A program made the position numbers and the translations under genes. A stretch of DNA of 64,000 nt from an uncultured Bacilli bacterium (GTDB lineage Bacteria; Bacillota_I; Bacilli_A; RF39; UBA660): contig CAKOWU010000006.1 of assembly GCA_934129885.1 (NCBI GenBank), forward strand, positions 12,695 to 76,694, written 5' to 3'. Below the pieces are notes generated by a model that worked only from the letters and a program-made list of their open reading frames with translations, was not told the DNA's origin and searched no databases. Within the stretch, counting starts at the first letter, position 1; each line of letters opens with the position of its first letter. Shown piece by piece: positions 2,145-49,374 of this stretch.

Positions 2145-3959
2145 ATGAAACAAAGAAATATTGCGATTATTGCACACGTAGATCATGGTAAGACTACTTT
2201 GGTTGATAAGTTATTACAAATGTCTGGTACTTTTAGAGAGAATGAAGATGTTTCGGTACGTGTAATGGACTCTAATGATATTGAGAGGGAAAGAGGTATT
2301 ACTATACTTGCGAAGACGACCGCTATTAATTATAAAGGATATAGAATTAATATTTTAGATACTCCTGGTCACGCGGATTTTGGTGGCGAGGTCGAGAGAA
2401 TTATGAATATGGTTGATGGCGTATTACTTGTTGTTGATGCATATGAGGGTACTATGCCACAGACTAGGTTTGTTCTTAAGAAGGCTTTGGATGCTGGGGT
2501 TACTCCTATTGTTGTTGTAAATAAGGTTGATAAGGATTCTGCTAGACCTACTGAGGTTGTTGATGAGGTTCTTGATTTATTTATTGAACTTGGTGCTTCT
2601 TTGGAACAATTAGATTTCCCAGTTATTTATGCTTCTGCGCTTTCTGGTACTTCTAGTTTATCTCCCGATTTATCTACGCAAAAGGAGACTATGGATCCTA
2701 TTTTAGATACTGTTATTAATCATATTCCTGCTCCTAAGGTGGAAGAAAACGGGCCACTGCAATTTCAACCAGCACTTTTAGACTACAATGATTTTGTCGG
2801 ACGTATCGGTGTTGGTTTAATAAAAAGAGGAAAGATTAAACTTAATAGTATGGTTTCTTGTGTTCGCTTTGATGGCTCTATTAAGCAGTTTAGAGTTCAG
2901 AAAATTTTTGGTTATTTAGGTCTTAATAAGATTGAGCTTCAGGAAGCACATGCGGGCGATATTGTTGCTATTGCGGGATTACCGGACATTTCTGTCGGTG
3001 AGACTGTGTGTGAGGTTGGAAAAGAGGAAGCGTTACCGCATTTACGTATTGATGAGCCAACTTTACAAATGAGATTTGGTGTTAATACTTCGCCTTTCTG
3101 TGGTAAAGAAGGAAAGTTTATTACTGCTAGAAAGATAGAGGAAAGACTTATGAAGGAAACTGAAAGGGATGTTTCACTTAAGGTTGAGCCTTTTGATTCG
3201 GAGTCTTGGACTGTTTCTGGTAGAGGTGAGTTACATCTTTCTATTTTAATTGAAAATATGCGTAGAGGTGGCTATGAAATTGAGGTATCTAAACCAGAGA
3301 TAATTGTTAAGGAAATAGATGGCACTAAATACGAGCCATATGAAGATGTTCAAATTGATGTCCCTGATGAGTATGTTGGTAGTGTTATTGAAATTCTTGG
3401 TACTCGTGGTGGAAGTATGGAGAATATGGATTCTAAGGAAAATCAGACTAGACTTAATTATGTTATGCCATCTAGGGGATTAATTGGTTTTATGACTGAT
3501 TTTATGACACTTACTAAAGGTTATGGTATTATTAACCACACTTTTAAGGAATATTTACCTATGACTAGTGCTGCGGTTGGTCAAAGAAAGAATGGCGTTT
3601 TGGTTTCTATGGAAAATGGTAAGGCAACTGCTTATTCTTTGGGCGCTCTTGAGGACAGAGGTGTTATGTTTATTGAACCTGGTACTGATGTATATGAGGG
3701 CATGATTGTTGGCGAGAATAATCATGATAATGATCTTGCAGTAAATGTTGTTAAGGGTAAGCAACTTACAAATACTCGTTCTGCGGGTAAGGATCATACT
3801 GTGGTTTTGAAAAGACCTAGAGAGATGAGTTTGGAAGTTTGTCTTGATTATATTAATGATGATGAACTCGTTGAGGTTACTCCTGTTAGTTACAGACTTC
3901 GTAAGAAGATTTTAAATACTAACGAAAGAAAGAAATTTGATAATAAGAAAAAGGCTTAG
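2145..3959 (+). CDS. typA: Translational GTPase TypA/BipA
   Basis: 'NIAIIAHVDHGKTTLVD', 'DTPGHADFGGEVER', 'NKVD'. The 604-aa full-length architecture is typical of BipA. Confidence 0.97.
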   Translation: MKQRNIAIIAHVDHGKTTLVDKLLQMSGTFRENEDVSVRVMDSNDIERERGITILAKTTAINYKGYRINILDTPGHADFGGEVERIMNMVDGVLLVVDAYEGTMPQTRFVLKKALDAGVTPIVVVNKVDKDSARPTEVVDEVLDLFIELGASLEQLDFPVIYASALSGTSSLSPDLSTQKETMDPILDTVINHIPAPKVEENGPLQFQPALLDYNDFVGRIGVGLIKRGKIKLNSMVSCVRFDGSIKQFRVQKIFGYLGLNKIELQEAHAGDIVAIAGLPDISVGETVCEVGKEEALPHLRIDEPTLQMRFGVNTSPFCGKEGKFITARKIEERLMKETERDVSLKVEPFDSESWTVSGRGELHLSILIENMRRGGYEIEVSKPEIIVKEIDGTKYEPYEDVQIDVPDEYVGSVIEILGTRGGSMENMDSKENQTRLNYVMPSRGLIGFMTDFMTLTKGYGIINHTFKEYLPMTSAAVGQRKNGVLVSMENGKATAYSLGALEDRGVMFIEPGTDVYEGMIVGENNHDNDLAVNVVKGKQLTNTRSAGKDHTVVLKRPREMSLEVCLDYINDDELVEVTPVSYRLRKKILNTNERKKFDNKKKA

Positions 3960-3963
3960 CAAT

Positions 3964-4103
3964 AAAATACTCTATAAAGTTTTAACCTTTATAGAGTATT
4001 TTTACATTTATTTACATTCAATTATAAAACATGATTATTTTTGCAATAAATTACTTATTGACTCGTTTTTTCTTTAATTTTGTGGTTGAATAAATATTAT
4101 TTT
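3964..4103. repeat. Left copy of an imperfect direct repeat of about 140 bp (partner at 12680-12818)
   Basis: By-eye alignment: identical hairpin arms 'aatactctataaag/ctttatagagtatt', then 'tttacattt(a/g)tttacatt', 'gattattttt', 'ttacttattg', 'tgtggtt(g/a)aataaat'. Confidence 0.85.
3966..4003 (+). terminator. Rho-independent terminator of typA
   Basis: 14-bp perfect stem (3966-3979 / 3987-4000), 7-nt loop, T-run. Confidence 0.85.
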
Positions 4104-4402
4104 CGGAAAGATATTCAAGTGTTATAGTTAATAAAAAATATAAGTTTAATTATGAAAGTAATGTTTATCGAATTTTAAGGTGATTTTAATTTAGTACTAT
4201 CTAGTAAGTAAGATATAATTTGGTGAAGAAACAATTTAATAAAAAGAGAAATTTAGGCATTTACTTTGTACCTAAGGAAAAGCATCACAAACCCTTATAA
4301 ATATTGGTTATAGTGATGCTTTTTAAGTTGATTAACTGAAAAAGCATGGTTATATCATTAGTGAAATATAATCATAAGAATTAATAAATTAATGTTGTTA
4401 AT

Positions 4403-4430
4403 TTGACAAATCTTTTTAATTTTGTATAAT
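4403..4430 (+). promoter_or_regulatory. Sigma-A type promoter for the first island genes
   Basis: TTGACA (4403-4408), 16 bp spacer, TATAAT (4425-4430), preceded by TG. Confidence 0.55.
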
Positions 4431-4461
4431 AACATTGTTTTTTAAGAGGGGAGAGATTATT

Positions 4462-5571
4462 ATGGTGGATAATAGCTATGGGGATAATATGTTTAGTAAA
4501 AATTCAGGTTTTCTAAAAAAACAATCAGATATTGTCTCATTATCTAATAGTAATGATTTTGATGATTGGATTAATGAAGTTAATCAGATATTTGATGAGA
4601 TAGAAAACGGTAAATCCGAAGGGAAATATAAACATTTAACAAAAACAGATTTAGAAGAATTATGTGATATAGTAAAATCGTATAAAGATTATAATGCTTC
4701 TGAGGCTGCCTCTAAGCTTTTATATGCAATGATGAAGATTCAAGATAGACTTTTTGAAGAAAAGTTTTTACTTCTACAAACTAAAGATATATTAGATTCA
4801 TTAAATTCATTACATTTTCCACATTTTGGTCAAAAACAAATTGCTACTAAAGATGGTGACGCTAGTAATGTTGCGTTGTCAGTTTTGCCTTATGCTATAG
4901 CTAGTGGCTATATAGAGAATCCTAGTAAAAAAACTGTAATTATTGCTAAATTAATTGGGAGAGATATATTGAATGACTATCAAGAAAAATCTAAAACGTT
5001 AGATAAAGGATGTTTACCTTTTGTGGATGAGGAAAAAAACGGTATAATGGCAATTATGAATGTAGTTAGGGTAAATGCTAAAAAATTAGTGGCAGGTAAG
5101 CAACTTGAAAATTGTATATATCCGGAAACTACTATGGCTTATATATATTCTTTATTAAAAGATGATATAAAAAATCCTTTTAAATACCTTGACTTTTTAA
5201 AGAAAAAAATTAAACAAAATGCTAGTGATACTTATTTAAATATTATTGCTCTTTATTCTGCTGATGATTTATTAGAAGGGCAGGTTGCTATTAGTGAAAT
5301 GGAGTGCGATATTGAAGATAGGGTGATTTACAATCCAATTAAGTTTTCATTTGATGATAATATTATTATAATAGGACTTGCTAAGAAATTAAAATCTGAT
5401 GGCTCTTATTTAGATGATTTTATTAAGTTATTAGTAGAAAATGGTTTGGCAAATGACCTTAATAATGTAAAAATAAAAGATTTTGAATTAGAATATGATC
5501 TATATAATAAGAAAGAAAAAAGTTATCAATATAAATTAAATTATAAAGATGATAAAATTAATGATTTGTAA
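4462..5571 (+). CDS. Hypothetical protein (island gene 1)
   Basis: Long ORF. ATG at 4462 is preceded by 'agaggggaga'. No motif recognised. Confidence 0.7.
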   Translation: MVDNSYGDNMFSKNSGFLKKQSDIVSLSNSNDFDDWINEVNQIFDEIENGKSEGKYKHLTKTDLEELCDIVKSYKDYNASEAASKLLYAMMKIQDRLFEEKFLLLQTKDILDSLNSLHFPHFGQKQIATKDGDASNVALSVLPYAIASGYIENPSKKTVIIAKLIGRDILNDYQEKSKTLDKGCLPFVDEEKNGIMAIMNVVRVNAKKLVAGKQLENCIYPETTMAYIYSLLKDDIKNPFKYLDFLKKKIKQNASDTYLNIIALYSADDLLEGQVAISEMECDIEDRVIYNPIKFSFDDNIIIIGLAKKLKSDGSYLDDFIKLLVENGLANDLNNVKIKDFELEYDLYNKKEKSYQYKLNYKDDKINDL

Positions 5572-5604
5572 AATATATAATTATTAAACGAGGGGGAGAT
5601 AAAA

Positions 5605-6330
5605 ATGTTAAGTAATGATATAATAATAAAATTTTTAAATGATATTGAAAATCCAGGAATAAATGTAAGCAAACGTGTGGAGCAATATTTGTCTATTGTA
5701 CCTGGCGACAAAAAGAAACAAACAATTTATGAAGTGATTGATGGGTTGAAAGAAATTAAAGAAGAAAAAGAAGTTTTAGAATCTTGTGAATTGTTTGAAA
5801 GACAAATAAAAATTTTAGATGAGATAATTAAGGAACTTATAAAAAGAGGAAAACATATGAATAAAAAAGTGCATATGAATAAAAAAGAAGATTTTGCTGA
5901 TAAACAAGAACAGAATAATAAACAAGTATTTTCTGAAGAAACTGAAAAAGCACCTGAGGTTACTGAAAATTTAAATGGGGGTGATACTTTGGATAATTCA
6001 GAGAGTATTAATGAAACAGAGGAGTTAGAACAAGTTAATATTAGTGCACAAGAATCTTCAGATAAAATAGAAAATTTTACTGGACAAGTAAGTAAAGATG
6101 AACTTGAAAATTATATATGTTTATTGAAAGAGCAATTTGATTCGTTAAAAGAAACAAATGACATAAAAGAGGCTTTAATTGATAAAATAAATGAAGTTCA
6201 AGCGGAAATAGCTAAAGAAATTGAAAGAGGTATTCAGTTGGATGAACAATTAATTGCTTTGCAAAGTAAGAATATTGGAATAAAAGAGGATGGAAATGAT
6301 GGACGTCAATTTGTTAAAAACAATGAATGA
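5605..6330 (+). CDS. Hypothetical acidic coiled-coil protein (island gene 2)
   Basis: ORF with RBS 'gaggggga'. E/K/D-rich. No motif recognised. Confidence 0.65.
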   Translation: MLSNDIIIKFLNDIENPGINVSKRVEQYLSIVPGDKKKQTIYEVIDGLKEIKEEKEVLESCELFERQIKILDEIIKELIKRGKHMNKKVHMNKKEDFADKQEQNNKQVFSEETEKAPEVTENLNGGDTLDNSESINETEELEQVNISAQESSDKIENFTGQVSKDELENYICLLKEQFDSLKETNDIKEALIDKINEVQAEIAKEIERGIQLDEQLIALQSKNIGIKEDGNDGRQFVKNNE

Positions 6331-6427
6331 AAAACAATTACAAGAATTGTTAGAAAGCCTTGAAAATGAATTGCAGATTTTGAAGCTTAAAAATTTGAAG
6401 AAAGAAATATTAATTGAAACGCTATAA
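6290..6427 (+). CDS. Possible 45-aa coiled-coil micro-ORF overlapping the end of island gene 2
   Basis: 'MEMMDVNLLKTMNEKQLQELLESLENELQILKLKNLKKEILIETL', immediately followed by a hairpin plus T-run (6428-6450). No clear RBS. Confidence 0.2.
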   Translation: MEMMDVNLLKTMNEKQLQELLESLENELQILKLKNLKKEILIETL

Positions 6428-6545
6428 GCTGTTTTTACGGCTTTTTTCCATAGTGATTTTATGGAAATTTGGTATACAAAAATGTAAAACTTTAAGTAAA
6501 ATTAGTTACTGTTTACATAATTCTTGATAAATGTTGCTTTTCTTA

Positions 6546-6554
6546 TGCTATAAT
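6546..6554 (+). promoter_or_regulatory. Extended -10 element upstream of the sigma gene
   Basis: TGcTATAAT. The nearest TTGATA lies 19 bp upstream, so its spacing is suboptimal. Confidence 0.4.
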
Positions 6555-6587
6555 GAAAAAAATAGAGTGTTATAGGGGGTGGACGCT

Positions 6588-8018
6588 ATGGATAAATATA
6601 TATTGCCAAAAAATTTGGCTAAATACGGATATGGCTGTGATGATCCTGTTAGGACTGCTTTTTCGGTAGATGAAGAGGGATTATTTGATTATGATTCTTT
6701 AGAATCAATTGACGATGATATATTAGATGAAGAAACTGTTAAAGTAAATGTGAATAAAATTATAACGGTTGTTGATAATTTGGCGTATGAACATAGAAAA
6801 CTTTTAAAAAACGGGAGTCAATATTTTGAACTGGAGTCAATTATACCATTACATGAAATAAAAGAAAAATTTGATAATGATAATGAGATTAAATTGGCTT
6901 TGGATTATGCAATTAGTATGGGTTATAAAATTCGTGGTAATGATGCTGATATGGAAAGTGAACAAGAAAATTATTATAGACATGCGGATAATGCTAAAAT
7001 TAATTTACCAATACCATATGAAAGAAATTATCAAAATCAATTACTAGAACAATTAATTACATATAGAAATATATTGTGTTCTTTAATGTATTTAGATGGC
7101 GAAAATGTGTCTTTTGAAAAAAAAGACACCATAAAATTAAACATGGATGATGACACAGAAGAATTTTTAGCTTTTAAAAATAAATATTCAGAAATATTTT
7201 CAGAATATTATCGAATTAGGGGTGAAATAGCTGAGCATAATATGAGGTTAGTAAATTGGTGGTTCTATAAACAGAAAATAAAGGAGATAAATACTGAAAA
7301 TTTTATTTCTACTGGTTATCTAATTTTGTTTAAGGCTATCGATAATTATGTGCGCAAGCCAGAAAATTTGAAAAATTATGCATTATCAACATTTATATGT
7401 AATCAACTTAATTGGATGTTTGTTAAGAGTAATAAAGGTATAGCAGAATATGATGATACTACTTTTATAAGGCTTCCGGATTATATTGTTACGCAAATAA
7501 ATAAATATAAAAAAGTTAGAAATGCTTTGTCTGAGTTTGGTGAACCTACAAGTAGTGAGATAGGGGGAGCGATGGGACTTTATAGTGAAAGAGTTAGGGA
7601 ACTTGAAATGTTAGATGAAAGAAAAAAAGTTTTGAGTTTAGATGAACTACTTTCTCAAAATCTAGATTTAGAAATTTATTCAGTTGGTTTAGAGAAACCA
7701 ATGGTTTCTCATGATCCGGAATTGGTGGCAGAATTTAATGAGGTTAAAGAAAGCGTGTCTAGAGTATTGGATAGATTTTCTGAAAGAGAAAGAAAAGTTA
7801 TTGAACTAAGATTTGGACTAAAAGATGGTTACCAACGTACTCTTGAAGAAGTCGCCCGTGAATTTGGTGTAACTAGAGAGAGAATAGCACAAATGGAAAG
7901 TAAGGTTTTAGCAAAATTACGTCTTGCTTCTAATAGTTCAGAACTTAATAAATATGTAGTTGATGGTGTTAGTCCGTATTCAGAGATAGAGGCAGAATAT
8001 GGCGGTCGCACTTTATAA
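6588..8018 (+). CDS. RpoD-like sigma-70 family sigma factor paralog with a long N-terminal extension
   Basis: Region 2 'HNMRLVNWW...FISTGYLILFKAIDNY', region 3 'IRLPDYIVTQINKYKKVRNAL', region 4 'ERERKVIELRFGLKDGYQRTLEEVAREFGVTRERIAQMESKVLAKLR'. Confidence 0.85.
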   Translation: MDKYILPKNLAKYGYGCDDPVRTAFSVDEEGLFDYDSLESIDDDILDEETVKVNVNKIITVVDNLAYEHRKLLKNGSQYFELESIIPLHEIKEKFDNDNEIKLALDYAISMGYKIRGNDADMESEQENYYRHADNAKINLPIPYERNYQNQLLEQLITYRNILCSLMYLDGENVSFEKKDTIKLNMDDDTEEFLAFKNKYSEIFSEYYRIRGEIAEHNMRLVNWWFYKQKIKEINTENFISTGYLILFKAIDNYVRKPENLKNYALSTFICNQLNWMFVKSNKGIAEYDDTTFIRLPDYIVTQINKYKKVRNALSEFGEPTSSEIGGAMGLYSERVRELEMLDERKKVLSLDELLSQNLDLEIYSVGLEKPMVSHDPELVAEFNEVKESVSRVLDRFSERERKVIELRFGLKDGYQRTLEEVAREFGVTRERIAQMESKVLAKLRLASNSSELNKYVVDGVSPYSEIEAEYGGRTL

Positions 8019-10623
8019 ACATAATGAAGAAGCTTATCAAAAATTAATAAGTACTTTAAAAAATAATAAGTATGCTACTATAAATCATGCGACAGGAACA
8101 GGAAAATCATATATAATTTTAAAATATATGGAAGAACATCCAAACGCAAGAATTTTGTATATTGCTCCTACGTATGAAATAATTAATCAATTGATAAATA
8201 GAGATGCTCCTAAGCTGGGAATAGAAAAATTAGATAATGTTGATACTTTGATATATAGAACTTTACTAGATAAAAATATGAGTGATTTGGCTTTGAATTA
8301 TGATGTTTTTATACTTGATGAATATCATAGAGCAGGTGCAAAAAAGACAAATAATAGAATTAAAGAATTAAAAGAAATTATAAATAATGCCGATAAAAAA
8401 ATGATTGGTTTTTCAGCGACACCAACCAGATATTTAGATAATAAAAGAAATATGAAAGAAGAATTGTTTGAAGATGTAGAAGCATCTGAACTTTCAGTAG
8501 CTACTGCTATGGCTAATAATCTTTTGCCAGTGCCACTTTACGTGGTGTCAAAAATGGCTTTAAAGGATGATTATGCTAAGGCTATTCGTAGCGTTGATAG
8601 ATTGTTTCCGTCGTCTAGAAAGCAGAAATTACTTAGAGAATTAAACAGTATTTTTCCGCAAGGTGAGAGTTACAAGAAAACTATTAATAAATATGTAAAA
8701 GAAAATAGCAAAAATATTGTCTTCTGTTCAACTATTGGTGATTTAAATGAGACTATCAAAGAAAGTGAACTATGGTTTGAAGATTATGATAATGTATTTA
8801 GATATGCGATACATTCTGGTAAAACTCATGAGGAAAATATTCGAACTTTAAATGAATTTAATTTGACTAATAATGGATTATCAGTGCTTTTTGTTATAAA
8901 TATTTTAAATGAAGGTATTCATGTTGATTCTGTAGATAATATAATTTTAAATAGAAGGACTACTTCACCTATTATATATTTGCAACAAATTGGAAGAGTA
9001 TTATCGGCAAATCAAGTCAATAGAGATGTAACGATAATTGATTTAGTAAACAATTTTGATGCAACTAAAGAAATTAGGGAATTATTTTTGGATATTGAAG
9101 ATGAAATAAATAAAAAAATGGGTGAAGATTCTTTACAAAAAGAGTTATATCAGGAAAAATTAAACAAATTAAAATCTGCTCACGCAACTGCGGAAACACT
9201 TGAAAGACTTAGAAATATTAGGAATGAAGTAACGAGAGAAACAATCATTGATTCAAAAATAGAAAATTCTATAAATATTTTAGATTGTTATCAAAAGCAA
9301 ATAAAAAAACGTTTAACTATGTATAACATTTTAGATCCGAAAGTAAAAAATGCTTATATTTATATTTATAAGTATGTCAATTATATAACTAATGAACAAT
9401 TTGATCTGCTGAAAGAAATAGATATGGTACTTCCTTTAGAACTTCAAGTAACTTTTGAGGAGAGGAAAGAACAGTTAAAGGGTTATAATAGTATATTTTT
9501 AAGAGATATGGCTGTTTTGAAACAGAATTTTGAAGATGTACTTGTTGCTTTAGATACTCATATACCAGATGCAAATTCAAGCGATGAAGAAGAACGTGCA
9601 CTTGGTAATATTTATATGGATTTATTGGTAAGCAGTAATAAAGATGATTTAAATTTACTTAAGAATAAGGCGATAAAATTTGATTTATCACCAATTGAAA
9701 AAGCTTTATTTAGAATGGAATTATCAAATGAAGAAATTGAAAAATTGATAATTAGTGCTTATGATTCTTATAAAGGTGATTCGGTGTCAGAACAAATTAA
9801 AAAGGCTTTATCTAGTGTTTATGGTGAAAATAAAAAGTACGATGAATTGATTATAAAACTTTTAAATTTAATTGAAAAAAGAGAAAATCAGCAAATAGAA
9901 AAAATAAATAAAAATTTAAAATTGATTAGATTATTAAATCAAATAACTGAAGATAAAGATGATTATGAAGATGATTACTACTTTATGGAAGATTTTGAAA
10001 AATTATCTATGAAGGAGCAAATGGAAGTTAATAAAAAAATAGAATTTGCAAGGCATCGTAAATATTATAAGATGATGAAGCAATTAAATAGTACTTATAG
10101 TATTAGTGAGTATATGGATATTTATAGTAAGTTAGATGAAGATAATATTGACTACTATAGAGAAGTGATTGCTGAGTGTAAAAATTTAAATAATCTTCTT
10201 AAAGATTACGTAAAAAATGATGGTGATTTAAAAGAAGAAGTATTAGACGAAATTAGCCAAATGCTACAAAAAAGAGGAATGATTTTGGATGATATTAAGA
10301 AGACTATGCAGAAAAATAAAACAAAATTTTATTCAAAATTATTGGAAGAAGATATTCAATTAGAAAAAAAAGATTTTCTTTGTTTATATACTAGATTTAT
10401 AAAAGTCCATGAAAGGAAGCCGTTGCAGGAAATAGAAGAGGAGGCAACTCTTTATGAACAATATTGGGATTATCTAAATATATTTTCAAAGGGGGAAATA
10501 GATTGTATATTGAAAAAAGTAAATACTAATAAGGTACTTGATAATACTTTAAAAATGCGTCGCAAATATTATAGTAAGCAACTGAACGTAAGGTTTCAAA
10601 ATAACGGGAGGCAGGTAAAATGA
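7999..10623 (+). CDS. Superfamily-2 (ResIII/DEAH-like) helicase with a C-terminal extension of about 500 aa
   Basis: Motif I 'HATGTGKS', motif II 'DEYH', motif III 'SATP', motif VI 'QQIGRVLS'. The start overlaps the sigma gene by 20 nt. Confidence 0.85.
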   Translation: MAVALYKHNEEAYQKLISTLKNNKYATINHATGTGKSYIILKYMEEHPNARILYIAPTYEIINQLINRDAPKLGIEKLDNVDTLIYRTLLDKNMSDLALNYDVFILDEYHRAGAKKTNNRIKELKEIINNADKKMIGFSATPTRYLDNKRNMKEELFEDVEASELSVATAMANNLLPVPLYVVSKMALKDDYAKAIRSVDRLFPSSRKQKLLRELNSIFPQGESYKKTINKYVKENSKNIVFCSTIGDLNETIKESELWFEDYDNVFRYAIHSGKTHEENIRTLNEFNLTNNGLSVLFVINILNEGIHVDSVDNIILNRRTTSPIIYLQQIGRVLSANQVNRDVTIIDLVNNFDATKEIRELFLDIEDEINKKMGEDSLQKELYQEKLNKLKSAHATAETLERLRNIRNEVTRETIIDSKIENSINILDCYQKQIKKRLTMYNILDPKVKNAYIYIYKYVNYITNEQFDLLKEIDMVLPLELQVTFEERKEQLKGYNSIFLRDMAVLKQNFEDVLVALDTHIPDANSSDEEERALGNIYMDLLVSSNKDDLNLLKNKAIKFDLSPIEKALFRMELSNEEIEKLIISAYDSYKGDSVSEQIKKALSSVYGENKKYDELIIKLLNLIEKRENQQIEKINKNLKLIRLLNQITEDKDDYEDDYYFMEDFEKLSMKEQMEVNKKIEFARHRKYYKMMKQLNSTYSISEYMDIYSKLDEDNIDYYREVIAECKNLNNLLKDYVKNDGDLKEEVLDEISQMLQKRGMILDDIKKTMQKNKTKFYSKLLEEDIQLEKKDFLCLYTRFIKVHERKPLQEIEEEATLYEQYWDYLNIFSKGEIDCILKKVNTNKVLDNTLKMRRKYYSKQLNVRFQNNGRQVK

Positions 10624-12608
10624 ACTTTGAAGAATATTTAAAATTAGCAATAGAGGATGAAAATATTAATTTAATTGGAATATTGGTGGAAAAATATAGA
10701 ACGGAAGGGATTGAAGCCGTAGAAAGTCTTTTGTCTAGCTATAATCCAGAAAATAAAGATAAAAGTCAATTTTTTACTCCTCTGGTGGAAAAATGTCAAG
10801 AATTGATGGAAACCGCTAATGAAGAAGAAAAGAATATATATGAGGCAATAATAGATTTTTGTCAGGCACAGCCTAAAGATGAATATGATTTTTTAAATGG
10901 AGGTAGTAGTAAATTTAAAGTTTTTTTTGCAGGTAAGTCTTTAGAATGCTGGAAAAACCTGGATCCTGCTTATCGAGTAAAATTTTTAGATTGTATTGAA
11001 AATTATCTTTCCTCTGAACATGATGAAATTGCATTAGTTGATGTTAAAACTTTGTATTCTTTCAATAGTGGAATAACTGTTAGAAGACGAAAGTATGCTA
11101 GATTTAATCGTATAATTTTTTATCGTGTTCCAGCTGATAGATGTGTAGTAATACTTGGAATGTTTAAAAGAACTGGTAATGCATTAGATTATTCTAAATT
11201 TATTCCAGTTGATAAAAAACTAGATTCTATTGAAGAGTCACGAAAAGCTTTTTTGAATGGAACTTTAAGTTTGGATAATGAACACTATAGCGTTGTAAAA
11301 GAAATAAAGAAATTTTTGTTTAGAGTAAATAAAAATGAGTATCCAACATCATTGGAAATAAAAGATATTTTGCCTGAAACTACGCTTTCTACTGGTGACG
11401 ATTCAATAACTGATGTATCAGCGTTGACAAAGTTAGATGATGAGGTAATTGAAGATGGTGTGAAAATTGCAGAATCTAGTGAAAACACAGTGGTTGAAAC
11501 TGGTATGAAAGTGTTATCTAGTGAAGAAGATATACCTAAGTCTAAAGTGAGAAAAAGCAAGAGAAATAACAGAACTGGAATACCTGATGTTATGTGGCTT
11601 AGTAGGTTTGATGTTGCCAAAGTCTTTTATGATAAATATGGTCATTTGAATTTTGATGAGGTCACTGAATGTGCTGAACTTGGATATTTGAATATGAAGA
11701 TGTGGTTAGACGAACAGAAAAAGTTATTTCAAAGAGGACTTCTTTCGAAGCAGCAATGTGAAAAATTAAAAGAAATTGGTATTTCTTTTGAAACACCTTC
11801 TAAAGAAGATGAAAAAATTGAGGTCTTGACTCTTGAAGTTACGGAAGAAGATGCAAAAAGTGAAAAGTCTCCTGCTATTGTACTTCCAAACGATTCTTTC
11901 TTTGATGAGAGGTCAGTAATAAATGCTATAAATGATATTACTTTAGTAGAACCTTTAAGGTTACTTTCTGTGGAAGAACTTAATAGTTTAGATGAAGGTT
12001 TTATAGATGATTTTACTATAGTATATAATTATAAAAAAGAAACTGGTACAATTGATATCCATGATAAAAATTTTAATATTGGTGAAAATGCTGGTAAAGT
12101 AAATAATATTATTAAAAAATGGAATAAGAAGAAAAATAAGTTTAATGAAGTAAAAAGAAAATTAATTGATGAATTGTGTATGTCTTTAAAAGAAGAAGAA
12201 TTAGCCAAGTCTGTTGTTCTTGCCGAAGAATCAACGGATGGGGATTTTAGTTTGGTATTACAATCTTTTGATGATGTTAGGGGGGCGATTCTTGGAGAAA
12301 CCGAAGAAGAATCAACTCAGTCATTGGAAACTTTGGGAAATGAATTTATAAGTGATTGTGATGATTATCATATTCTAGCTAAAAAAATGAATATTTTAAC
12401 TTTTATTAATAATATGTCTGATGATAAAATTAAACAAATAAATGCAGTATTAAATTGTGATTTTAGCGATGATTATTCACCAAAGGAAACTTTGTTAATG
12501 CTTATTAATAATGTGTCTGATGAACATTTGGATCAAGTGCTAAAAATATTGGATAATGTTTATAGTAACGACGTGCCAACTGTCCATGATGGAAAATCAA
12601 TTAGTTAA
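10620..12608 (+). CDS. Multidomain protein: RelE/HigB (Gp49)-like core, helicase-associated (HA) domain and an acidic C-terminal region
   Basis: ATGA start/stop overlap with the helicase. 'RRRKYARFNRIIFYRVPADRCVVILGMFKRTG' is RelE/HigB-like. 'WLSRFDVAKVFYDKYGHLNFDE...LGYLNMKMWLDEQKKLFQRGLLSKQQCEKLKEIGISF' is an HA domain. Confidence 0.8.
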   Translation: MNFEEYLKLAIEDENINLIGILVEKYRTEGIEAVESLLSSYNPENKDKSQFFTPLVEKCQELMETANEEEKNIYEAIIDFCQAQPKDEYDFLNGGSSKFKVFFAGKSLECWKNLDPAYRVKFLDCIENYLSSEHDEIALVDVKTLYSFNSGITVRRRKYARFNRIIFYRVPADRCVVILGMFKRTGNALDYSKFIPVDKKLDSIEESRKAFLNGTLSLDNEHYSVVKEIKKFLFRVNKNEYPTSLEIKDILPETTLSTGDDSITDVSALTKLDDEVIEDGVKIAESSENTVVETGMKVLSSEEDIPKSKVRKSKRNNRTGIPDVMWLSRFDVAKVFYDKYGHLNFDEVTECAELGYLNMKMWLDEQKKLFQRGLLSKQQCEKLKEIGISFETPSKEDEKIEVLTLEVTEEDAKSEKSPAIVLPNDSFFDERSVINAINDITLVEPLRLLSVEELNSLDEGFIDDFTIVYNYKKETGTIDIHDKNFNIGENAGKVNNIIKKWNKKKNKFNEVKRKLIDELCMSLKEEELAKSVVLAEESTDGDFSLVLQSFDDVRGAILGETEEESTQSLETLGNEFISDCDDYHILAKKMNILTFINNMSDDKIKQINAVLNCDFSDDYSPKETLLMLINNVSDEHLDQVLKILDNVYSNDVPTVHDGKSIS

Positions 12609-12679
12609 GCTGGGTAGTGTGTCTTGATAAACATTGTGTTGTTGGTTTTTCTTACCAATACTAAATATTGTAGAATTCT

Positions 12680-12818
12680 AAAATACTCTATAAAGATGAA
12701 ACTTTATAGAGTATTTTTACATTTGTTTACATTTAAATACAAAATGTGATTATTTTTACAATAAGTTACTTATTGGTCAACTTTTTATTTATTTGTGTGG
12801 TTAAATAAATTTTATTTT
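12680..12818. repeat. Right copy of the imperfect direct repeat of about 140 bp (partner at 3964-4103)
   Basis: See the left copy. It ends at the stop codon region of cotJC. Confidence 0.85.
12682..12718. terminator. Bidirectional rho-independent terminator (island operon / cotJC)
   Basis: Same 14-bp stem as at 3966-4003 with a different loop ('atgaaa'). A-run on one side and T-run on the other. Confidence 0.8.
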
Positions 12819-13384
12819 TTAGTTCCTTTGATTTTAGCGTCTAGATAGTAGTCTCTTAATTCTTTAAACCTTTGATAGTGAACGATTTCTCTTTCTCTTA
12901 AGAATGCTAGTGGTGCTAGTACGTCTGGGTCATTTGTTAGATCCATTAGGTGTTCGTAGGTGGCTCTGGCTCTTTGTTCAGCTCCCATATTACTTTCTAG
13001 ATCGGCAATGTAGTCGCCTGCTACTTTGATATAGGACATGCTAAATGGATTACCGAAGGTGTCAGATGGGAATAGGTCTTTACCGAACTGTGCGTAGTTG
13101 GTGTCTAAACCTGCAGCTTTTATTTCTTCTAGGCTTGCGTCTTTGGTTAGTTGGTAAAGCATTGTACTGATGATTTCGACGTGAGCTAATTCTTCGGTAC
13201 CAATGTCAGTTAGTAAGGCTTTACCTCTATCATCTGGCATACTGTATCTTTGATCTAGGTATTGCCAAGCGGCCGCTAATTCGCCGGCGGGACCGCCATA
13301 TTGAGCAATTATATATTTGGCAAGTTTTAAATCTTTATTTTTAATATTTACAGGATACTGTAATTTTTTTTCATATTTCCACAT
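12812..13384 (-). CDS. cotJC: Spore coat protein CotJC (manganese catalase family)
   Basis: 'GGPAGELAAAWQYLDQRY', 'GTEELAHVEIISTML', 'REREIVHYQRF'. Immediately downstream of a CotJB-like gene. Confidence 0.9.
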   Translation of the reverse strand: MWKYEKKLQYPVNIKNKDLKLAKYIIAQYGGPAGELAAAWQYLDQRYSMPDDRGKALLTDIGTEELAHVEIISTMLYQLTKDASLEEIKAAGLDTNYAQFGKDLFPSDTFGNPFSMSYIKVAGDYIADLESNMGAEQRARATYEHLMDLTNDPDVLAPLAFLREREIVHYQRFKELRDYYLDAKIKGTKK

Positions 13385-13395
13385 AATGGTACCCC

Positions 13396-14061
13396 CTATT
13401 CATTTTCCCATGGCCATGGTGATTCATTCCAAGACCAAGGTGTCCTTTCTGCACTATTTACATATATTGGTCCATATTCTTTTTCATAATCTTTTGTGAT
13501 TTTATCTAATTCTTTAGTAAATGTTTTGAATAGATTTAACATATTTGTATCGTTTGGATGTGTATCTAAATATAGATTTAAATCATGAGTTGCGAAAGAA
13601 TAAGCATATATATATGTAAGCATTTCTGCCTGTTTGTTTATTGGTTTTACCTCGTAAGGCTTTGATATTTTATATGAATTATATAAGTCTTTAAACATAT
13701 TACCGCTGATGAAACCGGTATATACTTCGTATAGATCATTTGGATTTACGTTTTGGATGTAGTTTGGTTTATTAAAGTTCATGTTATTACCTGCTTCTTT
13801 ATTTAATTTGTTTATAAGTTCGTTATTTGGTGTTCCTTGAACATTTAGATTTGAATTTATATTATAATTTTGGTTATTAGTGTATATTCCGTTTGTGGCG
13901 TATTTTTGATTACTCGCATAAGTTCCGCTTTTGGTGTAGTTATAGTTGTTGTTTGGCATGTTTTGCCCAGTTATGGTTTTATTCCAATTATAGTTTGGAT
14001 ACATTTCGGTATTGTAATTTGAATTATTTGGAATATAATTCATATTGTTATAGTTATACAT
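13396..14061 (-). CDS. cotJB: CotJB-domain spore coat protein with a CotJA-like motif and an N/Y-rich N-terminal extension
   Basis: C-terminal 'FATHDLNLYLDTHPNDTNMLNLF...YEKEYGP' (CotJB). Strong RBS 'gaggagggtaattaaATG'. Confidence 0.8.
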   Translation of the reverse strand: MYNYNNMNYIPNNSNYNTEMYPNYNWNKTITGQNMPNNNYNYTKSGTYASNQKYATNGIYTNNQNYNINSNLNVQGTPNNELINKLNKEAGNNMNFNKPNYIQNVNPNDLYEVYTGFISGNMFKDLYNSYKISKPYEVKPINKQAEMLTYIYAYSFATHDLNLYLDTHPNDTNMLNLFKTFTKELDKITKDYEKEYGPIYVNSAERTPWSWNESPWPWENE

Positions 14062-17473: not shown

Positions 17474-17550
17474 GGCGGAATTGGTGAAGTGGTTAACACG
17501 ACGGATTGTGGTTCCGTTACGCATCGGTTCGATTCCGATATTCCGCCCCA
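17474..17550 (+). tRNA. tRNA-His: tRNA-His (GUG) with the extra 5' G and encoded CCA
   Basis: 77-nt cloverleaf. Anticodon loop 'TTGTGGT', T-arm 'GGTTCGATTCC', 3' CCA. Confidence 0.95.
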
Positions 17551-17590
17551 GAATGTAAAATCGTCGCACCAATTGCGACTTTATGATTAA

Positions 17591-17616
17591 ATCAACTGAA
17601 AAAAGTTGATTTTTTT
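17591..17616 (+). terminator. Terminator downstream of tRNA-His
   Basis: 'atcaact gaaaaa agttgat' followed by T6. A weaker hairpin, 'gtcgca ccaat tgcgac', lies just upstream. Confidence 0.7.
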
Positions 17617-17675
17617 GTGCTATTGCAAAGAAAGGTGTGATGTGATATGATAGTAATCATCAAGAAAAAATCAAT

Positions 17676-17918
17676 ATGAGTAAAGAACTCTATTCTAAAA
17701 TTGAATGGACTTGCACATTTCAGAAGAAAGACTTTAAAATTCTTGGGGGTCATCTTCGTATTGTGAAGCATACCAATTTAGCGTATGTGGAACCACATAG
17801 GGTTATTATTGATAACAAACTATATTTGTTCTTTAATGACCAAACATATTTCTATATTGGGAACCTAGAAAAGAAAATTCCCTTATCCGAATTATCAAAT
17901 TACATAGCAAGGCATTAA
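17676..17918 (+). CDS. Hypothetical protein
   Basis: 80-aa ORF upstream of the recombinase. No motif recognised. Confidence 0.45.
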   Translation: MSKELYSKIEWTCTFQKKDFKILGGHLRIVKHTNLAYVEPHRVIIDNKLYLFFNDQTYFYIGNLEKKIPLSELSNYIARH

Positions 17919-17994
17919 GAATTTTAGAATTTTAAAAAATTGCTTTATATTGATTGTTTTGTCGTGCAAATAATCAAATAAATTCTAAAATTGA

Positions 17995-19875
<1,881 letters not shown>

Positions 19876-19892
19876 AAAGAGTATGATGAAAA

Positions 19893-20246
19893 ATGAAAAT
19901 AAACTATATTAAAAATGGTGATTATTATTTACCAGACTTAAATTTAAATGAAGAAAAACAAGAAAATATTGGAAGATACGGAATATTAAGATTACGTTAT
20001 ATTAAAGAAAACAAAAAAGAACTTTATACTCATTTATTAATGACAAATAAATTAAATTATCATTTAAGGTTAATTAACGAAGTTTGTGAAACTAGATTTA
20101 AAGTTTTAATGGAAGATTTTATTAAAAATGATAAAAGACTAACCGAAAAAAGCAAAGCGAAAAATGGACTTGAGTGGACTAAAATTATGAATAACTATAA
20201 GAATGCTGCTGAAGAAATGATTATGAGTGAACTAATTTATGTTTAG
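19893..20246 (+). CDS. TnpV-like transposon protein
   Basis: 'YIKNGDYYLPDL...GRYGILRLRYIKENKKELYTHLLMTNKLNYHL' matches my memory of TnpV of Tn4451-type elements. Confidence 0.75.
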   Translation: MKINYIKNGDYYLPDLNLNEEKQENIGRYGILRLRYIKENKKELYTHLLMTNKLNYHLRLINEVCETRFKVLMEDFIKNDKRLTEKSKAKNGLEWTKIMNNYKNAAEEMIMSELIYV

Positions 20247-20330
20247 TTTCTCTCTATCTTCCATCATAAGCAAGCAACGTGTTTTTACTCCCATCACAAA
20301 AAACACACTAAACAGAAAGATTTTTATCTA

Positions 20331-21641
20331 ATGGCTGTTACTAAAATATGGAAGATAAAAAATAATTTAAAGCATTCTATAAATTATATAGTTAATCATG
20401 AAAAAACTTTAAACACTGAGTATGGAAAAAATGTATATGATGAATTTCATTTAGATAATAAACCTAATTATAAAAACGAATTGTCTCATTATATTACAGG
20501 AGTTAATTGTCTAGCAAATACGGCATATGAAGATATGATGATGACTAAACAGCAATACGGCAAAGAGGATGGCATTATTGCCTATCATGCATATCAATCT
20601 TTTAATGATGATATTACTCCTGAACTTGCTCATGAAATTGGTATTAAACTAGCTGAAGAAATGTGAAATGATTTTGAAGTAGTTGTTGCTACTCATCAAA
20701 ATACTAATCATATTCATAATCATTTCATAATTAATTCTGTTTCATATTATACGGATAAAAAATATAACAATAATAGACCTAATTTGGCTAAATTGAGGCA
20801 TATATCCGATGCTTTATGTGAAGAATATGGACTAACTACTTTAAATGAAAAAAGTGAATATAAAAACACTTATAAGTATAAAGTGTTAGATAACGATTAT
20901 TATAAAGTAGTTAAAGAAGATATAGATGATATTCTTAGCTATTCAATTACCTATGACCAATTTATAAACAGATTAAAAAAATTAAATTATAAAGTTTATA
21001 ACAATTATGGTAAACTTACTATTTATAAAGAAGGTTTTGATAAGGTTAGAATTGAAAAAGCATTTGGTGAAGATTATTGTATTGATAAAATTAAAGATAA
21101 ACTATATAACAACAAATATTCAAATCAAATTGCCTTCAAACCAAAATCCCAAAAGTCTATATTTGAAAAGTTTTTATCTATTACCAATAATAAGCATAAA
21201 GGAATACTTGGTTTATACTATTATTATTGCTATTTATTAGGTGTATTTCCAAAAGAAAATCCTAAACAATATTTGCCTTATTCAATAAGAAAAGAAATTA
21301 AAAAAATGGAACAATATTCTGAAGAAGCAAGGTTTATGGTTTCCAATAAAATTGAAACTAAAGATGATTTAGAAATTTTATTAAAAAATACAGAGGAGCA
21401 ATATTATAAATCAACTAGTGATAGAACAAATTTATGGACAAGACATCGTAGAGCAAAAACTGACGATGTTAAAAATGAAATTAAATCTAAAATAGATGAA
21501 ATTCAACCTAAAATTAAGGAACTTCGTAAACAAATTAAGTATTGTAAAAATATTAAAGAAAGATCTGAAGAAATGCAAAATAATATTAATAATTTTGATA
21601 AAGATTTAGCCAAAGAAAAAGACAAGTCATGGTCTAGATAA
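20331..21641 (+). pseudogene. MobA/VirD2-family relaxase interrupted by an in-frame TGA (20664-20666)
   Basis: The ORFs at 20331-20666 and 20784-21641 are in the same frame. The read-through segment contains the His triad 'ATHQNTNHIHNHFIINSVS'. Confidence 0.8.
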
Positions 21642-21658
21642 CCTGATTTGTCTTTTTA

Positions 21659-23893
21659 TTATTTGTGTTTCATTCCATAGTCAGTTATTACACCATCATA
21701 GTTTTCAATACTACCATCCATTTTATCTTCAGAAATCATTGACATTGGAATCACCATAGTTTTAGGGCTTTCTTTTTTTAAGGTGTATTCTGTATCATCA
21801 GCATATTCCCTTGCTGATTTTACTTCTAAATCATAAGAATGTAATTTATCAATAAATGTATTTAGGCTTTCATTACCCTCTCTAAAATAAACTCTAAAAG
21901 CTTCTTTGACTATTACATTTGATAAAGGTATATCATTATTCTTCAAAGTTTCTATAACCTCTTTTGAGTTTTCTTCAGTTATCTCAATTACATTATTATT
22001 TAAATCTAATATAGAATGTTTTACAGCTTTACCTTTATCATAGAAATATTCTTCTGGTTTGTACTGCCTTAAATATTGTAATGAATGACTTTTTAAAACT
22101 GAAAATCTTTCATTATCAGATAAATTCTTAAAACTTTCTTTTTTTGTATCAATATATAAAGTATTAAAGAAAGTTATTACTTCACCAAGTTTTTCATTTG
22201 GTATATCAACATCATTTGTAATCCAATTATTATCTAACGATTCATAAATTTTATGCAAATTACCAATAGAAACACCACTCTTTGCTAATAAATAAGAAAG
22301 CTTTATTTTTTGTTCATTATTTAATGCTTTCGCATTTCTACCAACATTACGAAGTTTTGGATTATATCTAACTTTTCCAAGTGAATCAACAATAACACTC
22401 ATTTTTTTAATGTTTTTAATCATAATATTTTTAAATCGGTATGAATTATCATTCAATGTTTTTTGAATTGCAATATATTGTTCTGGATATTTATCTTTCA
22501 TTTTTTCTAAAACATTATCAATAAAAACTATATCAACGCCATATTCATCAGATAATTGCTCTTTTGTTTTTAAAGTTTTAGGTAAATTATACAATTCTAT
22601 TTCAATTTGCTTTTCATTTTCTTCTGTTTTTATAACTTTTTGCATATCAGAATTTGGCATTATGCTTTCTGGATTATTTTTTGCATATTCAATCATTTCA
22701 TCAGTTAAATATTGCTTAGAAATTAAATTAATGTTTTTAGTTTTTTCAAAAATTTCATTATAAAAATTAGTAAGATAATTCTTTTTTTTAGTTTTAGGTA
22801 CTTCAAGTAATTTTTTTTCAAGGAATTTATCAACCATTTTTTTAGTTATATAACCCATTGGAACATATTCAAAATCCTCAATTGTTAGTGAACCTTTGTG
22901 CAAGTTATCGCTTTTTATATATCTATAACTATCTTTTGAATTACGATTTACATTATATATGAATATTTCTTCAATTTGTTCTTTCAAAGTTTGTCTTTTT
23001 AATGTGTAATTATAAAACTTAGAAAAACTTTCAACATATATACTGGCTAATTCTTCTGTTTGAAATTTTCTTGGAATCTGTCTTATACTATAATAAGACC
23101 TTCTGATGCATTCATTACACATTTCTTGGGTCGTATATTCTTCTGGAATATTAGAAATACTTCCACCATGATTTATATAATAATTACACAAATCTTGCGT
23201 TATGTATTCTTCTGGCACCCTTGTTAATGAGAAATATTTTTCATTATCTATTTTTCTCATAAAAAAGTATTCAAAAGCATATTCTCTATATTTGCCCTTA
23301 ACATCACTTGGATGTCCACCATTTTGAATATATTGTTCGCACATTTCTTTTGTCAAAAATTCTTTGGGAATACCACGAATGTCCCCTGTTTTATTAAACC
23401 AAAAATTGCAAAGAGTAGAATTTTTTTTATCGCTAGGTATACTAAGTCTAAAGACATAAGGGTCATCATATTTCTCAAAATATGCCTCACACATTTCATT
23501 TGTTAAAAATTGTTCTGGTATATACTGTATAAATGTCTTTGAATTGTGTGTTTCATTAGAAGACATACATTCTTCAAAATATTCATTACACATTTCTTGA
23601 GTTACGAATTCTTCTGGTATTCCCCTAAGGTCATGCTTCCATTCATACCAAAGATTACATATAAATGCATTTCTTTTATCTTCATTAATGCTATTTAGAT
23701 TATGAGACGCGAAATATCTTCTGCACATATCTTCTGTAATATATTCTGAAGGGATTTTATTTATATCTCCCGTTTTTGCGAAAAAATCATTGCAAATCTC
23801 CTGAAAAACAGAATGTCTATATTCTTCAGGAACTTCATTAGGTTTTCCACCATTTTTCAAATAATCATAATAATATTTTTGCATTTCATCCAT
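21659..23893 (-). CDS. DUF4116-like repeat protein (744 aa)
   Basis: At least eight copies of '(I/V)P(E/K)E(Y/F)xT(Q/K/E)EMCxxY(F/I)' in the N-terminal half. The C-terminal half is unrecognised. Confidence 0.7.
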   Translation of the reverse strand: MDEMQKYYYDYLKNGGKPNEVPEEYRHSVFQEICNDFFAKTGDINKIPSEYITEDMCRRYFASHNLNSINEDKRNAFICNLWYEWKHDLRGIPEEFVTQEMCNEYFEECMSSNETHNSKTFIQYIPEQFLTNEMCEAYFEKYDDPYVFRLSIPSDKKNSTLCNFWFNKTGDIRGIPKEFLTKEMCEQYIQNGGHPSDVKGKYREYAFEYFFMRKIDNEKYFSLTRVPEEYITQDLCNYYINHGGSISNIPEEYTTQEMCNECIRRSYYSIRQIPRKFQTEELASIYVESFSKFYNYTLKRQTLKEQIEEIFIYNVNRNSKDSYRYIKSDNLHKGSLTIEDFEYVPMGYITKKMVDKFLEKKLLEVPKTKKKNYLTNFYNEIFEKTKNINLISKQYLTDEMIEYAKNNPESIMPNSDMQKVIKTEENEKQIEIELYNLPKTLKTKEQLSDEYGVDIVFIDNVLEKMKDKYPEQYIAIQKTLNDNSYRFKNIMIKNIKKMSVIVDSLGKVRYNPKLRNVGRNAKALNNEQKIKLSYLLAKSGVSIGNLHKIYESLDNNWITNDVDIPNEKLGEVITFFNTLYIDTKKESFKNLSDNERFSVLKSHSLQYLRQYKPEEYFYDKGKAVKHSILDLNNNVIEITEENSKEVIETLKNNDIPLSNVIVKEAFRVYFREGNESLNTFIDKLHSYDLEVKSAREYADDTEYTLKKESPKTMVIPMSMISEDKMDGSIENYDGVITDYGMKHK

Positions 23894-24005
23894 ATATTAT
23901 CACCTTAATTTAATTAAATTATATCAAATTAAGCATTTGCTTACAACTGTTGATTAATAAAAACATTATATTAACTAAAAAAGACATAACTAAATGGTTA
24001 TATCC

Positions 24006-24419: not shown

Positions 24420-24421
24420 TT

Positions 24422-24838: not shown

Positions 24839-24928
24839 CTTAAGCCTCCAATAAAAATTACAAATTACAAATGTATGTCTACAATTATTCTATCATATTT
24901 GAATAACACTGAAAAGCATTATACTACT

Positions 24929-26263: not shown

Positions 26264-26322
26264 TTTGCACCTCCATTATCATCTAAACTAATCATATCAC
26301 ATTTTCTAATATTTTCCTAGTG

Positions 26323-26374
26323 AATTTCCTAATAAATTTCCTAATAAATTTCCTAATAAATTTCCTAATAAATT
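26323..26374. repeat. Tandem 12-bp repeat 'aatttcctaata' x4 plus a partial copy
   Basis: Perfect head-to-tail copies. Degenerate copies lie just upstream (26300-22). It sits 60-110 bp upstream of the AlbA_2 gene start, in a divergent intergenic region. Confidence 0.9.
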
Positions 26375-49340: not shown

Positions 49341-49374
49341 GGTAATATTTTAATGAAGTAATGTAAATACATGT

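Follow-up and report, generated by a model that had tools for sequence, protein, structure and literature searches.

The window analyzed here, a 64-kb stretch of the genome of an uncultured human-gut Bacilli species, carries an ~8.7-kb block of five genes (g1 to g5) from position 3960 to 12811, in the interval between the core genes typA and cotJC. On balance, we favor the interpretation that this block is one allele of a presence/absence polymorphism, in which an accessory island occupies the typA-cotJC spacer, is framed by two foreign and diverged copies of such a spacer and is exchanged between strains through homologous recombination in the flanking genes. The left core flank is typA/bipA (2145..3959, + strand; Pfam GTP_EFTU, BipA_C and EFG_C), and the right core flank is cotJC of the Mn-catalase family (12812..13384, − strand; Pfam Mn_catalase), which adjoins cotJB (13396..14061, − strand; Pfam CotJB, 1.7e-25). 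An earlier note on this DNA had described the segment as an insertion into a locus where typA and cotJC converge, with all its genes on one strand and with no integrase, transposase or recombinase between the flanking repeats. All three points held: contigs of the same species with an empty site were found (L095-L101 and L109), the five open reading frames (ORFs) all lie on the + strand, and none of them matches an integrase, transposase or recombinase in Pfam, NCBIfam, PHROGs or PADLOC, the protein family libraries used for the island ORFs.

In the empty contigs, typA faces cotJC across 188-190 bp without the island. The empty-site variants were drawn from 90% TypA/CotJC clusters, and the island carriers were obtained from exact-sequence look-ups of the window TypA and CotJC. 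All places shown carry the island in the 19 contigs read for the window TypA variant and in the 22 contigs read for the window CotJC variant, and all places shown are empty in the 18 contigs read for TypA variant P0123. Further empty sites are found with the TypA variants P0125 (2 contigs) and P0127 (1 contig) and in some contigs with P0124, other P0124 contigs (L102 and L103) carrying the island at 99.9% identity. Among the contigs sampled for this species, about one in two carries the island. Given that the flanks of the empty contigs are 99.0-99.7% identical to those of the window, or 99.1-99.5% (left) and 98.6-99.4% (right) when the two sides are taken separately, the empty contigs belong to the same species as the window. 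On the left, identity to the empty strains ends at window position 3958, the typA stop codon being TAG with the island and TAA in its absence. On the right, identity resumes at the cotJC stop codon, where the last codon and stop codon read AAA TAA with the island and AAC TAG without it, so that the last sense codon at 12815 also differs. Because the alleles differ all the way between the stop codon of typA and the last codon of cotJC, both repeats at the island ends are part of the island allele. Two sister lineages are also empty, namely L106-108, whose typA and cotJC are 91 and 88% identical to those of this species at the nucleotide level, and the more distant L192-195.

The two direct repeats were delimited by pairwise alignment, repeat search and blastn at 3964..4103 (left, + strand, 140 nt) and 12680..12818 (right, + strand), the final bases of the latter overlapping the stop codon and last codons of cotJC. 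As the earlier note had described, the left copy follows the typA stop, beginning 4 nt past its end at 3959, and the right copy meets the cotJC stop, extending into the stop codon at 12812-12814. Its reading by eye that the two ~140-bp segments align over their full length with at least four-fifths identity was also borne out, as 117 of 140 columns are identical (83.6%) in an end-to-end alignment with one 1-nt gap; blastn of the left against the right repeat gave 141 nt at 83.7% identity (E ~4e-38 within the window). The repeat search detected only these two full-length copies in the 64 kb. Both repeats open with AAAATACTCTATAAAG-loop-CTTTATAGAGTATTTT, in which all 32 of the 32 stem positions are identical. 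The shared stem and the differing loops (TTTTAAC in the left copy and ATGAAA in the right copy) had been recognized before, but the stem is 16 bp long rather than 14 bp. The tandem motif claimed for both copies is likewise present: the motif scan placed this tandem TTTACA motif at 3999..4018 (+ strand; TTTTTACATTTATTTACATT) in the left copy and at 12714..12733 (+ strand) in the right copy.

By terminator scan and RNA folding, the hairpins are predicted intrinsic terminators at 3964..4002 (left, 16-bp stem and 7-nt loop) and 12680..12717 (right, 16-bp stem and 6-nt loop), neither being assigned to a strand. The terminator scan called both of them, with 16 pairs followed by a T run, and they dominate the minimum free energy and centroid folds predicted for both strands. 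The left hairpin is preceded by an A tract and followed by a T tract and is therefore bidirectional in form. As a predicted terminator, it would end typA transcripts, and the right hairpin would stop transcription of g3-g5 and, on the opposite strand, that of cotJC-cotJB. The longest runs of identity between the left and right repeats, 23 and 16 nt, both lie inside the hairpin, and the complete conservation of the stems compares with 85 of 108 for the remaining repeat columns (Fisher p = 0.002). The better-kept stems fit selection on both hairpins.

The spacer of the empty strains (i.e., the resident spacer) is different from either repeat. Its typA terminator, AAAAGGC...GCCTTTT, uses the last typA codons as its 5' arm (AAAAAGGC...GCCTTTTT) and differs from the hairpin of the repeats, and the spacer has ~70 extra nt that bear a hairpin of their own. 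In global alignments the resident spacer is 64-67% identical to either island repeat, and the repeats are 82-84% identical to each other. Thus, the single-copy empty site that the earlier note had advised looking for was found as far as the empty site is concerned, but its spacer does not correspond to one copy of the repeat. Given that the resident and sister-species spacers share only ~66% identity, against 91% nucleotide identity for typA, spacers diverge quickly at this locus, and the island repeats look like spacer versions from a lineage about as distant as the sister species. The repeats are nonetheless homologous to the resident spacer. Apart from one case among the left-copy results, their best blastn matches beyond the island alleles of this species fall in the spacers at the syntenic position in the empty strains and the sister lineage. 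When all spacer versions were aligned, TTTACA-N4-TTTAC was followed by ATTAnTT 17 nt on and then by AnAnnTTACnT, in common order and position, and these shared blocks with identical position and order indicate that all spacer versions are homologous. The typA arm AAAAAGGC is kept in the island allele and its pairing partner is lost there. This retained and unpaired arm identifies the island allele as derived, and the sister lineage L106-108 has the resident-type typA terminator. Of the two possibilities considered in the earlier note, that the island duplicated the intergenic region or brought its own version of it, the second fits better.

We also noticed that in every typA-cotJC spacer version the second TTTACA is followed 16-17 nt later by (G/T)ATTAT(T) (4011-4038 and 12726-12753 in the window; 11848-11876 in L095), a pair that resembles a promoter-like −35/−10 arrangement aimed at the cotJC 3' end. 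In the resident spacer, this promoter-like pair is followed by a same-strand hairpin and T run (GATTTTAATGAT...ATCATTAAAATC TATTTTTTT) with no match in Rfam, and the resident spacer may encode a small or cotJC-antisense RNA of ~90 nt.

The distribution of the island among strains points to exchange through the flanks. It is found on at least two typA haplotypes, and the island-carrying L102 and L103 share single-nucleotide polymorphisms (SNPs) with the empty L101; the occurrence of the island on differing typA SNP backgrounds indicates recombination in the flanks. In the diverged island-bearing strain L004, divergence is 1.0% for g5, the island portion present on that contig, and 0.9-1.4% for the core flanks, and because the two have diverged equally, the island has been in the species for some time. 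It should be noted that all three differences in the right repeat of L004 are toward the state of the left copy, but such a pattern would arise by chance ~60% of the time (an estimate), so nothing about gene conversion follows from it. g5 adjoins cotJC in 19 of 19 contigs. No circle junction (g5-repeat-g1) was found in these 19 g5 contigs, and no single-repeat 'excised' form was found in the 22 contigs that have the CotJC allele linked to the island, assemblies being a weak test for rare forms in both cases. Searches for g4 and g5 relatives showed this island neither at another locus nor in another species. In L103 (14731-17485), g4 is broken into two ORFs (636 and 279 aa) and is probably a pseudogene, and in view of this split the island module is not strictly selected in all carriers.

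Comparison with other species places the island in a locus of variable content. A TypA-based retrieval gave 80 related GTDB species, in 19 of which typA and cotJC converge across a short interval of 18 bp to 7.3 kb, and the cargo of the interval elsewhere is unrelated to that of the window (Ddl, ABC-F, M3 peptidase, Ltp lipoprotein and SpoU methylase). The suggestion of the earlier note that the ancestral interval consisted of one terminator does not always apply, as several of the closest other species hold a lipoprotein gene there. In the closest species (L005, L006, L009, L012-L015, L019 and L030), this conserved gene of ~225 aa lies directly downstream of cotJC and has no Pfam family; no trace of it was found in the window by tblastn. 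The locus has one core-gene pair with varied cargo, presence/absence of the island within a species and more than one flank haplotype. From the haplotypes, the co-divergence of island and flanks, the lack of circle or excision junctions and the varied cargo, we regard typA-cotJC as a core-gene hotspot whose content is exchanged by flank recombination.

The history that we favor would run as follows. The island allele would take the place of the entire resident spacer, all 188 bp between the two stop codons, and each of its ends would be a related lineage's version of the spacer, consisting of a strong bidirectional terminator and ~100 nt. The cargo would first have entered the spacer in that related lineage and duplicated it, most economically if a circular DNA with one spacer copy had recombined with the chromosomal spacer in a single crossover. 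Such a circle would be self-contained, running from a spacer with its terminator through a promoter and g1-g5 back to the terminator. The two copies would then have drifted to 84% identity under selection that held both terminator stems, and the whole block would now move between strains, or be lost, by homologous recombination in the flanking genes and not at the repeats. Given that the copies differ by 16% and the flanks by <1%, the duplication is older than the entry of the block into the present population. The single-crossover origin of the repeats is inferred, and other duplicative routes could account for them as well.

Several points weigh against this history. The duplicating event was not observed, no donor lineage was found and the nearest relative of the cargo is only 43% identical. 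If the block was imported from a diverged donor, tracts of donor type would be expected in typA and cotJC, but there are none: no SNP cluster is found in either gene beside the junctions, and differences stay at ~1 per 200 nt up to the stop codons. Because donor tracts are absent, one must suppose that recombination eroded them later. No fold is recognizable in g1, g2 or most of g5, and these may include a novel recombinase; the function of the terminators and the use of the promoters are predictions, and the search for further repeat copies in this genome covered the 64 kb and ~8 kb upstream.

The possibility of a novel recombinase bears on the alternative that the earlier note had raised, in which the island is a site-specific integrative element, the repeats are its attL and attR, and the recombinase is either a novel one among g1, g2 and g5 or is supplied in trans, for example by one of the large serine recombinases of neighboring elements. 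The direct repeats located exactly at both island ends and the presence/absence polymorphism are as expected for such an element, three of the cargo proteins cannot be annotated, and serine recombinase genes are close by, one 5 kb off (18007-19875) and another in the cotJC of L102 and L103. The empty site, however, is ~65% identical to the repeats and lacks the core hairpin, and hence provides no common attB core. Moreover, the neighboring recombinase belongs to a separate element with its own ends, which are both CCCCAG (the left one being the tRNA-His 3' end), neither a circle junction (19 contigs) nor a single-repeat allele (22 contigs) was detected, and the island was seen at no other locus or species. 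Serine recombinases are not known to make 140-bp direct repeats. With an empty spacer that is 64-67% identical to the repeats and lacks their hairpin core, and with no recombinase detected, the attL/attR-like arrangement is not supported, and we consider a site-specific element improbable.

It is also very unlikely that the 140-nt unit belongs to a dispersed family of short repeats (similar to repetitive extragenic palindromes or miniature inverted-repeat transposable elements, or a terminator-linked regulatory element) that flanks the island by coincidence or marks spacers prone to insertion. In favor of such a family, the tandem motif was found four times in the window, with 0.54 expected, and the repeat is not quite unique: its first ~60 nt share short conserved blocks with a site at 49.4 kb (49360-49379, − strand), where a terminator hairpin is followed by the tandem motif (1 mismatch in 20) and the shared block AAATATTAC. 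These ~60 nt of short blocks, however, amount to neither the 140-nt unit nor the hairpin sequence. No other copy of the repeat was found in the 64 kb or in 2.7 Mb of related loci, where blastn gave only weak similarity in other species, at the syntenic position. An exact 21-mer from the hairpin occurs 0 times in IMG/VR and 0 times in the JGI metagenome collection, from which the species may be absent, as the island proteins are recorded only from NCBI/ENA/Logan; a distant blastn search of PLSDB plasmids with the left repeat and spacer yielded nothing. In addition, the conserved blocks are at one spacer position in every lineage, which argues for homology by descent.

The site at 49.4 kb deserves description in its own right. 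This third hairpin (49360-49400, − strand; AAAAAACTAGG-CTAC-CCTAGTTTTTT) is followed by the tandem motif TTTTTACATGTATTTACATT and then by the block AAATATTACC, and it is located in another convergent spacer, adjoining the stop of the gene at 48600-49340. The arrangement suggests a short terminator-linked element that is specific to this species.

Duplication in place is highly improbable as well. According to this explanation, the resident spacer was copied in the present species when the cargo was inserted, through a very long target duplication or template switching, and the copies diverged afterwards. The two copies are indeed closer to each other than to anything else, but the flanks differ by 0.3-1%, the copies by 16% from each other and by ~35% from the resident spacer, and so much divergence would need far more time than this species has had, unless mutation is orders of magnitude faster in the spacer than around it. 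That the island is ancestral and the empty allele arose by deletion between the repeats, for which 140-bp direct repeats are a RecA-dependent substrate and with which the co-divergence of island and core in L004 agrees, is scarcely credible and largely refuted by the empty-site sequence, in that the empty spacer is no left/right hybrid but has another terminator, built with typA's own last codons, and ~70 extra nt, and two sister lineages are empty, L106-108 with the resident-type typA terminator.

The island as we read it is best compared with accessory islands that sit in core-gene hotspots and are exchanged by homologous recombination of the flanks, a concept from comparative genomics of gene-transfer hotspots in bacteria. 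It resembles them in having one core-gene pair with varied cargo across species, within-species polymorphism with flanks of ~99% identity or more, several flank haplotypes and no recombinase of its own. It differs in that this allele has two diverged spacer copies as direct repeats and in that its boundary is exact to the stop codons. With integrase-borne islands, prophages and integrative and conjugative elements, such as tRNA islands and the staphylococcal cassette chromosome mec (SCCmec) at the orfX 3' end, the island shares terminal direct repeats, insertion after a conserved gene, variability among strains and G+C somewhat lower than in the flanks. In contrast to these elements, it has no integrase or Ccr-type recombinase, its repeats are 140 nt long at 84% identity and the empty site contains no core. 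G+C is 27.4% in the island and 29.3% in the whole window, and higher G+C is confined to the immediate core flanks; G+C is a weak sign of foreign origin here.

Integrative mobile elements that exploit Xer at dif/pdif modules also lack a recombinase and have repeats at both ends, and the TTTACAT unit resembles part of the XerD-side arm of Bacillus dif (AGTTTACATAA). A dif/Xer module was rejected on two grounds: the motif units are direct and 10 nt apart rather than inverted arms around a 6-8-nt spacer, and the GC skew stays positive except for a local reversal in a second island farther downstream, with no sustained switch and so no sign of a replication terminus in the window.

The cargo is arranged as two operons with predicted sigma-A-type promoters. 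Unit 1 is preceded by a perfect match to the sigma-A consensus, TTGACA-16-TATAAT (4403..4430, + strand; 12/12 matches in the scan). Its first gene, g1 (4435..5571, + strand), probably starts at the ATG at 4462, which has the strong ribosome-binding site AGAGGGGAG upstream, and would encode 369 aa. g1 has no match in Pfam, NCBIfam, PHROGs, PADLOC or PDB and only eight homologues, all distant, among 1.84 billion representatives; its AlphaFold model has a pLDDT of 59, and Foldseek gave no match better than E = 1. g2 (5605..6330, + strand) encodes an acidic protein of 241 aa that looks like a coiled coil and has no Pfam match. It matches PDC-M38B of PADLOC weakly (7e-6) and is weakly similar to an ORF upstream of the sigma-factor gene in the related locus L089. 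A 43-aa ORF that overlaps the g2 end (6296..6427, + strand) is called as a gene in metagenomes (L085-L088), and a terminator-like hairpin (6426..6443, + strand), detected by the terminator scan, lies between units 1 and 2.

For unit 2, reading of the sequence identified a promoter-like site (6524..6554, + strand) with TTGATA, a 19-nt spacer and the extended −10 element TGcTATAAT (6546-6554). The first gene, g3 (6579..8018, + strand), encodes a sigma-70-family factor according to Pfam, NCBIfam and PHROG 351. Its C-terminal half is RpoD-like (regions 2-4) and is preceded by a 210-aa N-terminal extension. In Pfam, Sigma70_r4 was matched at 9e-16 (57.5 bits; cut-off 24.1) and r3 at 23.3 bits (cut-off 25.3); in NCBIfam, RpoD_Cterm (model positions 4-237 of 238, 5e-33) and MzaA (8e-35) were both matched far under their own cut-offs. 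g3 is ~35% identical to SigA/RpoD proteins, and because its score is under the RpoD equivalog cut-off, it is not the housekeeping sigma factor. g4 (7999..10623, + strand) encodes a superfamily 2 helicase (ResIII and Helicase_C; Pfam, PADLOC and PHROGs) with a 500-aa C-terminal extension. Its relatives form a family of ~880 aa, the nearest among 5.8 billion clusters being 43% identical. g5 (10620..12608, + strand) encodes 662 aa with one helicase associated (HA) domain at residues 323-387 (Pfam HA, 2.6e-7). No homologues of g5 were found outside its own cluster, although it is 22% identical to the gene downstream of the L089 helicase. Like g1, g4 and g5 have no sequence match in PDB, and the model of the g5 N-terminus (pLDDT 43) is too poor for use. 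A RelE/Gp49-like assignment of g5 residues 150-200 was rejected, as Pfam did not confirm it even at E = 5. IMG/VR contains no close relatives of g4 or g5, and tblastn searches of INPHARED phages and PLSDB plasmids returned no more than distantly related helicase cores and sigma domains of the general RpoD-like type.

Parts of unit 2 recur elsewhere. A sigma-factor gene abuts the helicase gene in all three contexts that were examined with the nearest g4 homologues (L089, L090 and L091-94), and in two of the three a g5-like or HA protein follows the helicase. The sigma-helicase pairing is also found in L110, L113-115 and L119, and in the metagenome scan it was found at 5 of ~10 loci of the g4-like subfamily. 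Most metagenomic g4 relatives are helicases fused to HA repeats, and for this wider family no adjoining sigma gene was detected. The predicted sigma-helicase(-HA) core is a recurrent module in gut Bacillota; our guess is that the module has an auxiliary role in transcription, perhaps a defensive one. A bolder proposal, which we regard as doubtful, is that the cassette is an undescribed system of defense or transcription takeover, in which its own sigma factor redirects RNA polymerase and the helicase acts on foreign nucleic acid, and which may spread without a recombinase by means of a carried copy of the target spacer and a single crossover. A search of the literature on MzaA and on sigma-helicase-HA neighborhoods found nothing usable.

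Two of the related loci have duplicated sequences of their own. In L090 (metagenome-assembled genome contig CALVVT010000053), paralogous glucosaminidase genes at 3951-4661 and 13272-13976 bracket sigma-helicase-HA genes and a DUF4116 gene over ~8.6 kb; the glucosaminidases are 46% identical as proteins, and their last 255 nt are 71% identical. L090 would be a second case of the module between duplicated flanks and another trace of single-crossover spread. In L114 (1241-7146), a g4-like helicase gene lies between two sigma-factor genes that share 300 nt at 78% identity.

Among described systems, the closest to g3 is the MZA anti-phage system, as MzaA, a sigma-70-type protein in an accessory/defense context, is the best family match of g3 in PADLOC and NCBIfam. 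The likeness is limited to the sigma domain, however, with 120.9 bits against a cut-off of 800, and the other island proteins have no MzaB-E match. The g4 core is 30-35% identical to the 'Helicase associated domain protein' on plasmids of Ruminococcus albus and Aneurinibacillus, and in this respect it resembles the HA (PF03457) helicases of Bacillota and Actinomycetota; unlike in those helicases, the HA domain is on the separate g5 here, and the pairing with a sigma factor is seen only in the subfamily closest to g4. Although the general kind of accessory island is known, the foreign, duplicated spacer-terminators and the uncharacterized sigma-helicase-HA cargo are noteworthy. The island provides a clean, base-resolved case of a small-genome gut bacterium that swaps accessory genes between convergent core genes without a dedicated recombinase, and of an incoming block that can bring its own terminators, so that the neighboring essential and sporulation genes stay insulated. 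The sigma-HA-helicase pairing is a reasonable candidate for functional screening, as sigma factors are only beginning to enter defense catalogues (e.g., MzaA). For genome scanning, the case cautions that finding long, imperfect direct repeats on both sides of an island is not in itself a sign of att sites.

In addition to the typA-cotJC island, the window contains a second strain-variable island (17553-27172), which begins at the 3' end of tRNA-His (17475-17550). Its genes include those for a 622-aa large serine recombinase (18007-19875) and a Schlafen/AlbA_2-HTH protein (24929-26263, − strand) together with unannotated genes, and metagenome annotations also call TnpV and a relaxase fragment in this stretch. 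The second island is absent from L097-L100, in which identity jumps from 17552 to 27173, and its site holds other cargo in L096 (an N6_Mtase/Eco57I enzyme), L101 and L109. CCCCAG, the tRNA 3' end at its left junction, recurs at its right end. Just upstream of the Schlafen/AlbA_2 gene, about five tandem 12-nt units (TTTCCTAATAAA) are found at 26313-26374.

In L102 (21156-21815) and L103 (20162-20691), at a point corresponding to ~13300 of the window, an insertion shortens cotJC to 163 aa; it opens with the gene for a 504-aa large serine recombinase and recalls recombinase-borne elements interrupting sporulation genes, such as skin in sigK. A separate pair of 206-nt direct repeats (571-776 and 50290-50495), 76% identical and 49.7 kb apart, is unrelated to the island repeat.

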